Source: Bdellovibrionales bacterium RIFOXYD12_FULL_39_22 (lineage in GTDB: Bacteria > Bdellovibrionota > Bacteriovoracia > Bacteriovoracales > Bacteriovoracaceae). Taken from it: DNA of 20,000 nt. Positions 13,611-15,238 of this stretch are shown here, piece after piece. Both the position numbers and the translations under genes were made by a program. How positions within the stretch are numbered: position 1 is the first letter of the stretch; each line of letters begins with the position of its first letter. Location of the stretch: NCBI GenBank assembly GCA_001770205.1, contig MEQL01000056.1, positions 55,426 through 75,425 of the forward strand, read 5' to 3'. Under the pieces are notes generated by a model, which worked only from the letters and a program-made list of their open reading frames with translations, made no database searches and was not told the DNA's origin.

Positions 13611-13639
13611 TTGATTTTGATTTTGCGGTGTGTTATATT
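13611..13639 (+). promoter_or_regulatory. sigma70-type promoter of the ncRNA
   Basis: TTGATT(13611-13616)-N17-TATATT(13634-13639) with extended -10 TG at 13631-13632. Predicted +1 (~13645-13647) falls at the start of the structured region. Confidence 0.7.
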
Positions 13640-13649
13640 GTCTCTTGTC

Positions 13650-13754
13650 CCCGTCGTTAAGGGCGACCACTTTCGAAAGTAGTGGAAGCAAAGCCCAGCT
13701 CTAAGTGCTTCAAAAATATTTTTAGAGGCATATGGGTTGTGGGTTGCCGAAGGG
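13650..13754 (+). promoter_or_regulatory. c-di-GMP-I (GEMM-I) riboswitch aptamer, variant
   Basis: Core motifs AGGGC...GAAA...GCAAAGCC...GGGTTGCCGA. P1 is CCCGTCG/CGAAGGG. P2 is CCACT/AGTGG with GAAA loop at 13675-13678. P3 is AGCCCA/TGGGTT with an 11-nt tetraloop receptor TCTAAG(13700-13705)/TATGG(13731-13735) and distal stem TGCTTC/GAGGCA. Ligand-contact equivalents: G20=13662, A47=13690, C92=13747. Confidence 0.88.
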
Positions 13755-14069
13755 TAAAGACACCGTCTTTAGACTGGCAGAGTTTTGAGGCCAGAATTTG
13801 ACGGGACAAAAACCTGTTTAAGCTTTTTTGGATTTATCTTTATCTTTATTTTTGTTATTGGAGGAGTTTTTTGGTTTTTGTTCAAAGGCGGATGTTTTTA
13901 GGAGGTTATTTTAGAGAATATTGGGCCTGTTCTAAAATTTATTTCTGGCGCTTGTTTCTTCAGGGAGTTTTTAGTCCGGTATTTTTTTCTTTCGTGCCGG
14001 TCTTTCGAGGGGCAGCGCGCTTAGTGGCATTTTTGCCGCTATTTCGAAATGAGGTTTTTGGAAATCAAT

Positions 14070-14102
14070 AGGGAGGGCCGCGTATGAGGCCCTCTTTTTT
14101 TT
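14070..14102 (+). terminator. intrinsic (Rho-independent) terminator
   Basis: GAGGGCC(14073-14079)/GGCCCTC(14088-14094) stem followed by T8 (14095-14102). Confidence 0.9.
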
Positions 14103-14173
14103 AGAGTTGATTTATTAGGCCATCCTCGTTAATACTTTATGTACTTTAATAGATTTAACGGGGATAACGGACA

Positions 14174-15238
14174 ATGATCGAGAAACTAAACAATCTCTTT
14201 TCCAACTTTACAACACAATTAGAAGCACTTTCAAAGCAGGCAGAAGTTTTAAATCTTAAGGCCGATTTACTGGGAAAAAATGGCAAGGTCTCTGAGATTT
14301 TGTCATCGCTAAAGAATGCATCGCTCGAGGAGAAAAAATCAATTGGTGCCTTGGCCAACAAAATAAAAGATGATGTGCAGCAGCTCATCAATCAAAAGCT
14401 AAATGCACTAGAACTAGAGGTTATCAATCATAAATTGGCCAGTGAGCGAATAGATATTTCACATTTAGACTCAATTAAGGCCTCTGGATTATATAGTGGT
14501 GGATATCATCCAGTCACTATTGTGCAAAAAGAGATAGAAGAGATTTTTTTATCAATGGGTTTTGAGGTTTTAGATGGGCCACATATTGAAGACGAGTACC
14601 ACAATTTTGAGGCCCTGAATATTCCCAAAGATCACCCGGCCAGGGATATGACTGATACTTTCTGGTTTCAGCGCCCAGATGATACTTCGGTCGCCAATAA
14701 ATACCTACTGCGCACGCACACTAGCACTATTCAGGTGCGAGGAATGAAAGGAAAAAGGCCGCCATTTAAATTTATTGCTCCGGGTAAAGTATTTCGGGCA
14801 GAACGCACTGACGCATCTCACGAGATGGTTTTTCATCAACTAGAGGGGATGTTGGTGGGTGAAAACATTTCTGTTTCACACCTGATTTTTTTCATGAAAA
14901 CGATTCTTAGCGAGATTTTTAAAAAAGAAGTAGATGTTAGATTGCGTCCAGGCTTCTTTCCTTTTGTGGAACCTGGTTTTGAATTAGATATTAAGTGTCT
15001 TATTTGCGGAGGTGGCGGCTGTTCTGTTTGTAAGCAGTCTGGTTGGGTGGAGCTTCTTCCCTGTGGGATGGTTCACCCCAATGTTTTACGACATGGCGGG
15101 ATTGATACAAATAAGTATAATGGTTTTGCGTTTGGACTAGGGTTGGATCGCTTAGTTATGTTGAAATATGGGATTGATGATATTCGCCATCTGCATGGTG
15201 GTGATTTGCGCTTTGTCTCTCAGTTTAAATCATATTGA
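14174..15238 (+). CDS. pheS: phenylalanine--tRNA ligase alpha subunit
   Basis: NFEALNIPKDHPARDM, LLRTHTS, FHQLEG, FPFVEP, GFAFGLGLDRL. Confidence 0.98.
   Translation: MIEKLNNLFSNFTTQLEALSKQAEVLNLKADLLGKNGKVSEILSSLKNASLEEKKSIGALANKIKDDVQQLINQKLNALELEVINHKLASERIDISHLDSIKASGLYSGGYHPVTIVQKEIEEIFLSMGFEVLDGPHIEDEYHNFEALNIPKDHPARDMTDTFWFQRPDDTSVANKYLLRTHTSTIQVRGMKGKRPPFKFIAPGKVFRAERTDASHEMVFHQLEGMLVGENISVSHLIFFMKTILSEIFKKEVDVRLRPGFFPFVEPGFELDIKCLICGGGGCSVCKQSGWVELLPCGMVHPNVLRHGGIDTNKYNGFAFGLGLDRLVMLKYGIDDIRHLHGGDLRFVSQFKSY

Follow-up and report, generated by a model that had tools for sequence, protein, structure and literature searches.

A c-di-GMP-I aptamer in a candidate stand-alone RNA of the Bacteriovoracaceae, with two conserved partners for its P1 strand

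What can a cyclic di-GMP (c-di-GMP) aptamer do when it leads no gene that it obviously controls? The question is raised by a locus of Bdellovibrionales bacterium RIFOXYD12_FULL_39_22 (family Bacteriovoracaceae), an organism described as a groundwater or soil bacterium, in which a stretch of 20,000 nucleotides (contig MEQL01000056.1, positions 55,426 to 75,425 of the forward strand; hereafter the window, whose own numbering is used throughout) carries a c-di-GMP-I aptamer between a PfkB-type kinase gene and pheS. As a preliminary description of the window had proposed, the 5' strand of P1, the helix that closes this aptamer, has two mutually exclusive partners downstream, and both are conserved in homologues. 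The reading that we favour, at about even odds, is that of a stand-alone RNA whose P1 strand switches between a proximal and a distal partner on c-di-GMP. A two-state switch is plausible from the sequences, and its toggling by the ligand, together with its output, is put forward here as a proposal. In what follows, a denotes the 5' strand of P1, b its proximal partner, d its distal partner, c-c' the long closing helix of the domain that follows the aptamer, and H2 and H3 the hairpins within that domain.

The aptamer lies at 13652..13751 on the plus strand, as do all window features below, with P2 at 13663-13689 (GAAA loop at 13675-78) and P3 at 13692-13745. In a permissive scan, RF01051 matched it along its entire model (1-87) at E 1e-4, the score of 33.7 bits falling short of the cut-off of 35; this was the sole RF01051 match in the genome, and Rfam at its gathering threshold returned nothing in the window; two members of the RNA family exceed that gathering score, with 36.5 and 36.9 bits. 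By motif reading, the bases that we take to be the equivalents of the ligand contacts G20, A47 and C92 (numbering of Vc2) lie at 13662, in the context 13687-93 and at 13747, the last within a U[GA]CC motif at 13745-48. Among the 60 homologues described below, the base before P2 that corresponds to G20 is G in 60/60, the CAAAG context is kept in 57, U[GA]CC in 60 and the GAAA loop, which the window shares, in 54, and the two putative tetraloop receptor halves read UAUGG in 43 (the window included) and C[CU]UAAG in 27, with a one-base variant of the latter in the window. On the model-fitted alignment of these sequences, 92.4% of the cells in P2 and P3 are paired, both sides have changed in 18 of 24 pairs, and the covariation score of 0.56, compared with 0.21 for shuffled alignments, was reached by none of 500 shuffles. 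Judged by its sequence, the aptamer is genuine, and binding of c-di-GMP is predicted. The fate of P1 matters for such an aptamer: passages of PMC9262584 report that Vc2 is unable to bind c-di-GMP without P1 and that P1 stability is the regulatory lever of the c-di-GMP-I riboswitch.

A DNA similarity search of 61 related genomes returned only short T-rich matches and did not find the RNA. With RF01051, 100 other genomes of the family yielded five further matches, four of them window-like and one an ordinary riboswitch with a terminator and an open reading frame (ORF). The curated RF01051 cut-off was passed in 3 of 101 genomes, and two of these three represent the RNA family studied here; with the curated Rfam threshold, most members of this family go undetected. 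A covariance model, R1, was built from the window and four relatives (alignment A1); with it, 60 of 151 family genomes, spread over 33 of 69 genera, each gave a single match, at full length. Of the genomes in a phylum-wide sample, R1 matched 9 of the 23 that belong to the family and 3 of the 127 assigned to other families. Two of the out-of-family RNAs, L083 99-340 and L084 455-637 (minus strand), are shorter, carry a terminator and precede a radical-SAM (QueE-like) gene. Within the family to which the window belongs, a different kind of RNA occurs at 1502-1620 of locus L017 (genome G075), namely an ordinary riboswitch of the c-di-GMP-I-GGC type (43.5 bits, the cut-off being 59), next to which lie a terminator, a ribosome-binding site and a secreted-looking ORF.

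How do the two partners of P1 compare across this family? Strand a spans 13645..13655, and its core, 13650-55, is near-invariant in the 60 homologues. Strand b (13749..13754) pairs with 13650-55 apart from one G-A mismatch, and with the pair 13656/13748 added, P1 closes next to the binding pocket through six pairs and that mismatch (13650-56/13748-54). Strand d (13800..13809, core 13800-05) is the junction strand between H2 and H3, and the complementarity of 13645-13655 to 13800-13809 with one extra C, on which the preliminary description rested, is present in the sequence. Within the family, the core of a reads CCCG, usually followed by U, the proximal strand is usually (A/G)CGG and stands a few bases after the C92 equivalent, and the distal core is CGGG. 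In the consensus register of a-b, the 60 sequences show C-G in 50 and 52, G-C in 45 with G-U in 3, and U-A in 25 with U-G in 24, and the duplex energies of the individual sequences range from -3.8 to -9.8 kcal/mol in 58 of them, the other two having -0.8 and -12.2. The inner P1 pair covaries in part (C-G 16, G-C 6, A-U 3, U-A 2, U-G 4), being a standard pair in 31 of 60 compared with 23.1 expected, and is G/G in 20.

Conservation of the distal complement had been named beforehand as a check on the switch, and the four core pairs of a-d are retained in 55-58 of the 60 homologues (C-G 56, C-G 58, C-G 55, G-C 58). In the family at large, a-d extends beyond this core by about one pair at either end; with four outer and three inner extra pairs, the window is an outlier, and its outer four (13645-48/13806-09), which the earlier drawing had included, are specific to the window and overlap the base of H3. 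Some changes in a are matched in d: three homologues have A after the 5' core, and all three have U before the distal core, and in L083 and L084 a core G-C has become U-A on both strands, with 7-8 base pairs (bp) in a-d, while the proximal strand of the same two RNAs forms a continuous 6-bp P1 that overlaps a-d. When a-d alone was scored over the 60 homologues and the three out-of-family sequences, 88.4% of cells were paired compared with 84.1 in shuffled alignments, five of six pairs had changed on both sides compared with 2.0, and the covariation score was 0.157 compared with 0.088. The helix stood above all of 500 shuffles on four of five measures and above 499 on the fifth, and control helices slid out of register scored 0.017-0.067. 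In the window itself, a-d is present in the unconstrained minimum free energy (MFE) structure of 13645-13830 (-59.2 kcal/mol, z -2.69, with 2 of 200 shuffles as good), and in a 466-nt fold (13645-14110) it is reduced to 6 bp, joining 13650-55 with 13800-05.

To what does strand d belong when it is not paired with a? In homologue folds, a strand c that follows directly on the proximal strand pairs about 100 nt on with a strand c', at whose end stands a GGAGG motif. The window has c at 13755..13770, forming 15 pairs with c' at 13884..13900, the latter ending directly at a Shine-Dalgarno (SD) motif. When the 3' domains were folded in isolation, c-c' appeared with at least 6 bp in the MFE structure of 52 of 54, enclosing two hairpins in 30, three in 16 and one in six, and at least three of the four bases of the distal CGGG were unpaired in 34 of these 52. 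A second model, R2 (alignment A4), matched 44 of the 60 homologues; the window, with its expanded H3, was for that reason left unmatched at E <=0.01. When c-c' and H3 (the latter as helices 3 and 4) are scored on the R2 alignment of these 44, 91.7% of cells are paired and both sides have changed in 23 of 24 pairs, with a covariation score of 0.63 compared with 0.26 for shuffled alignments and none of 500 shuffles as high. Duplexes of c with its cognate c' have a median of -20.3 kcal/mol compared with -15.1 for non-cognate ones, and the cognate partner ranks fifth or better in 22 of 54; tests of c-c' duplexes with badly placed or very wide search intervals were noisy and were not used. RNAalifold missed c-c' on a MAFFT alignment of 24 of the 3' domains because of misalignment, and an alignment of nine sequences recovered it. 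No Rfam family matched the 3' domain, of which c-c' is the core.

Inside c-c', hairpin H2 (13774..13794) has a 5-bp stem, 13774-78/13790-94, and an 11-nt loop, and a hairpin occurs here in most homologue folds. Hairpin H3 (13804..13883) is AU-rich as well as expanded in the window, and its predicted base, 13804-14/13873-83, overlaps strand d. This architecture revises much of what had been drawn around the switch. The local pairing 13755-61/13765-71 is present in the sequence, as is that of 13774-78 with 13790-94, yet both arms of the supposed hairpin at 13755-13771 belong to the 5' strand of a covarying long-range helix, whose other strand is 13884-13900, and this hairpin does not hold as a conserved fold. 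Similarly, 13744-48 (TTGCC) can pair with 13776-80 (GGCAG, with one G-U), yet a GGCA/GGCG complement occurs in only 15 of 59 homologues. The long-range helix a-d, drawn as a nested closing stem, crosses c-c' and is therefore a pseudoknot. The preliminary description had also seen neither a terminator with a U-tract nor a covered ribosome-binding site at the alternative helix, and this agrees with what was found: a weak terminator-like site at 13800-13818 is without counterpart in relatives. This site, with 6 pairs (2 of them G-U) and a T-run behind them within 13800-13830, overlaps strand d. Of the two-state switch as first described, the pair of conserved, mutually exclusive partners stands, together with some compensatory change at the distal strand, whereas the structure surrounding them differs from the one drawn.

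Strand b ends at 13754 and c starts at 13755, and P1 would therefore abut c-c'; the distal core, for its part, abuts H3. Strand a would thus toggle between stacking on c-c' and stacking on H3. A comparison of folds with and without P1, another check named in advance, gave near-isoenergetic states over 13640-13906, with -78.0 kcal/mol for P1 plus c-c' and -77.2 kcal/mol for the nested a-d state. Two further observations concern the loop of H3. A G-rich motif, G-U-G-G-N-G-A-G-C, is conserved there (A5 columns 89-177; about 13858-13868 in the window), and A-G-C-U-C stands just after the mini-ORF stop described below in many homologues, which makes the two candidates for pairing.

What follows c' is an SD motif at 13900-05 and a mini-ORF at 13921-13935 (start, three codons, stop), with an atypical SD spacing of 15 nt. 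Neither this element nor the terminator at 14070-14105 had entered the preliminary description. In 32 of the 60 homologues (for example L025, L037, L043 and L061), the series SD, NUG, G[GA]N, CCN comes directly after c', and in 31 of these 32 a stop codon follows immediately (UAA 15, UAG 14, UGA 2), N being U in 24, A in 7 and G in 1. Of the 32, 26 read exactly Met-Gly-Pro-stop; the version in the window is four codons long, and its SD is distant. Variation in the putative mini-ORF falls on the start, the wobble positions and the stop, as in coding sequence. A longer leader peptide or small protein behind the aptamer was considered and rejected, as ORFs of at least 25 aa are not in a constant frame and 6 loci lack them, and no conserved ORF of at least 25 aa was found among the homologue loci; a T-rich 66-aa ORF at 13871-14071 had no Pfam match. 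In L083, strand d is a G-run 6 nt before an AUG, where it could act as an ordinary SD-masking switch. In the window folds, a pyrimidine run at 13641-13645 could pair with the SD at 13901-13905, provided that the transcript begins before 13641; a start near 13646, as predicted, would leave the run out, and leaders are A-rich in relatives. A motif, G-A-C-A-U-U-C-A, recurs 30-60 nt after the mini-ORF in homologues such as L025, L055 and L074, sometimes twice, and was not seen in the window.

Is this RNA made on its own? A promoter-like site at 13611..13639 consists of a -35 element at 13611-16, a 17-nt spacer and a -10 element at 13634-39 preceded by TG (9 of 12 matches in a consensus scan), from which transcription would start near 13646. 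A strong intrinsic terminator with a GC-rich stem (10 pairs, 6 of them G-C) and a U run is found at 14070..14105, and in 35 of 59 homologues a strict scan placed a terminator 143-348 nt downstream of d. A role of strand d as an anti-terminator was rejected, the terminator arms resembling strand a in only 2 of 35. Four sequencing runs labelled metatranscriptomic were available, marked 'RNA? (probably DNA)', and in two of them, both from one study, the stretch 13661..14080 is covered by single contigs identical in sequence to the window: one of 417 nt at 13664-14080 with a depth of 27.5 and one of 403 nt at 13661-14063 with a depth of 17.5. These contigs are the only matches in the two labelled runs, where neither flanking gene is covered; the flanks are also covered by low-depth DNA runs. 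The contigs hint at a discrete, abundant RNA, and the RNA ends are not defined by them.

The genes around the locus are those for a cytidylate kinase, a family-9 glycosyltransferase and the PfkB-type kinase upstream, and pheS (14174-15238) followed by pheT downstream. A PfkB-type gene lies upstream at 50 of the 60 R1 loci, and pheS follows on the same strand at 40 of them, 116-568 nt after the R1 match. About ten R1 matches are on the minus strand, 4.0-4.3 kb from a contig end, with the break just after pheST, which suggests a repeated element there, possibly a ribosomal or transfer RNA cluster.

These features can be assembled into the following model. The stretch from 13646 to about 14105 on the plus strand would be a stand-alone RNA of about 460 nt, whose first ~110 nt would form the c-di-GMP-I aptamer and whose remainder would be a conserved 3' domain made up of the three-way junction (c-c', H2 and H3), the SD-led mini-ORF and the terminator. 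The core of a at 13650-55 would pair either with 13749-54, closing P1, or with the single-stranded junction segment 13800-05, in a pseudoknot that would tie the aptamer to the 3' domain. Without c-di-GMP, the junction strand would hold strand a and P1 would be open; with c-di-GMP, P1 would form beside c-c' and the junction strand would be freed. The freed strand may then alter how the 3' domain is folded; this domain reaches as far as the ribosome-binding site of the mini-ORF. Both states would have to form in the cell, with the ligand shifting the balance between them. A bolder version, which we regard as improbable, is that these RNAs constitute a new c-di-GMP-responsive class, in which the ligand signal would pass via a pseudoknot to a three-way junction presenting a strong ribosome-binding site and a Met-Gly-Pro-stop mini-ORF, so that an abundant RNA would engage, stall, sequester or be protected by ribosomes according to the level of c-di-GMP.

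Several results weigh against the switching RNA, the first being that the counts and shuffle tests for a-d rest on alignments that were fitted to a model of which this helix is part. Within the 154 nt of 13752-13905, the best duplex of the 11-mer a has -13.6 kcal/mol, which was matched in 116 of 1000 dinucleotide shuffles, and the duplex of the 6-nt core was reached in 24 of 1000 shuffles of the same stretch; the complementarity, taken in the window by itself, exceeds chance only weakly, and it is the conservation among relatives that gives it weight. That conservation has limits of its own. The a-b pairs, with 86.3% of cells paired, are not above shuffles, their lack of covariation being due to a core that never varies, and because both helices rest on this invariant core, neither is proven by covariation within the family. 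Cognate a-d extensions are not longer than non-cognate ones (permutation 1366/2000), the core carries a mismatch in L044 and L054, and the out-of-family L082 keeps P1 with three of six a-d pairs broken. Aptamer-constrained nearest-neighbour folds show a-d in only 6 of 60 and the proximal P1 in only 5 of 60, the low count for a-d being due in part to the fact that nested folds cannot model a pseudoknot. As for the transcript, the contigs begin at 13661-64 with strand a just outside, so that they do not support its transcription, and they come from runs marked as probable DNA. The output, finally, is not demonstrated, because the SD has no consistent anti-SD partner in 38 homologues (the aptamer in 21, strand c in 15 and other segments in 2; median -9.3 kcal/mol).

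Could the architecture be static instead? The RNA would then be a stand-alone c-di-GMP binder acting as a sponge or reservoir, in which strand a is always part of P1 and the distal CGGG is kept for junction folding or for binding of a protein or the ribosome and never pairs with a. We consider this possible and tentatively place it well below the switching RNA. The absence of a cognate advantage in helix extension and the behaviour of L082 fit such a binder, as does the constancy of the two bases after the distal GGG, given that the base before the 5' core varies and is unpaired there in 20 of 60. There are, moreover, several conserved G-rich motifs, so that a C-rich strand easily finds complements, and the transcript seems abundant and discrete, in line with the sponge idea published for merRNA in the portions of PMC3627812 at hand. 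What speaks for a real a-d helix is the coordinated change of the 5' and distal strands in L083 and L084, the three A/U compensations in three cases and the standing of a-d above 500 of 500 shuffles on four measures and 499 on the fifth, and the near-isoenergetic states of the window likewise argue against a fixed P1.

If a-d is real, it might also be permanent. In a constitutive pseudoknot, a-d together with two inner P1 pairs would form an extended closing helix across the junction that the ligand does not break, and there would be no switch. The covariation of the inner P1 pair is consistent with this, the outer P1 pairs being compatible with pairing and not proven, and RNAalifold on five sequences picked a-d as the consensus closing helix. 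Such a structure would nevertheless leave unexplained why the proximal strand is itself a conserved complement of the same bases of a, directly after the C92 equivalent as in ordinary aptamers, and why L083 and L084 have a continuous P1 that overlaps a-d, and we therefore rate it as unlikely, somewhat below even the bolder ribosome-engaging version. The least probable explanation, a long pheST leader in which pheS and pheT are controlled by the aptamer through read-through of the 14070-14105 terminator, draws on the position of pheS downstream on the same strand in 40 of 60 loci, on a consensus scan that found no promoter-like site on the plus strand between 14105 and 14174 and on the long platforms reported for the Bc1 riboswitch (PMC11218506, in part), and it is very doubtful given that the terminator arms neither resemble strand a (2/35) nor complement strand d, that the contigs labelled as RNA end before or in the terminator with pheS uncovered in those runs, that the out-of-family homologues have a different downstream gene and that the order pfkB-RNA-pheS may be mere conserved synteny.

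How, then, does the switching RNA compare with known systems? With Vc2 of Vibrio cholerae (RF01051) it shares the two-hairpin aptamer, the GAAA tetraloop, a putative receptor half-site, the presumed equivalents of G20, A47 and C92 and the closing P1. It differs from RF01051 in a score just below the cut-off and in the competitor of P1, which is the junction strand of a conserved three-way junction and not a terminator, anti-terminator or anti-SD strand, with no protein-coding gene obviously controlled. A small RNA containing Vc2, whose stability is reported to depend on c-di-GMP (bioRxiv 10.1101/617340), is similar in that its aptamer governs what becomes of a non-coding transcript and not the expression of an ORF downstream. 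That small RNA carries the aptamer at its 3' end, whereas in the window RNA it stands at the 5' end and precedes a large structured domain. In the accessible portions of the literature on merRNA and c-di-GMP riboswitches (orphan, stand-alone, sponge, tandem, pseudoknot), no RNA of this layout was found.

The closest likeness is to merRNA of Bdellovibrio bacteriovorus HD100, described in the available parts of PMC3627812 as a massively expressed 445-nt RNA with a c-di-GMP riboswitch, for which a sponge function was proposed. Both would be RNAs of about 450 nt with their own promoter and terminator, a c-di-GMP-I aptamer, no conserved long ORF and a very high abundance, at which the contigs hint in the case of the window RNA, and both have a strong SD with a very short ORF, that of merRNA being, by eye, about 12 codons long and upstream of its aptamer (PMC3627812, supplement 1). 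In merRNA, the aptamer is in the 3' half, in contrast to the 5' end in the window RNA, and the gene adjoins mrp (Bd1134) instead of a pfkB-type kinase and pheS; in HD100, pheS has only a 112-nt gap behind gidB. Orthology by synteny was accordingly rejected, flanking genes and aptamer position being different in a comparison made by reading only. The window RNA resembles merRNA in kind; orthology is not established, the sequences having been compared by reading alone. A PLoS Genet 2025 study (PMC12622784), in the parts available, used the merRNA promoter alone.

Riboswitch aptamers that do not lead genes are rare, and the function of merRNA has been open since 2013. The conserved layout described here probably lets c-di-GMP reshape a larger, abundant RNA, and if the bolder ribosome-engaging version were true, the window RNA would be a functional cousin of merRNA and would provide a testable mechanism for the role of the latter. 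Its family of about 60 members has testable parts, namely an aptamer, two competing partners of the P1 strand, a covarying three-way junction and a three-codon ORF, and these defined parts offer mutations and probing constructs for studying how c-di-GMP may act through an RNA without a downstream gene.

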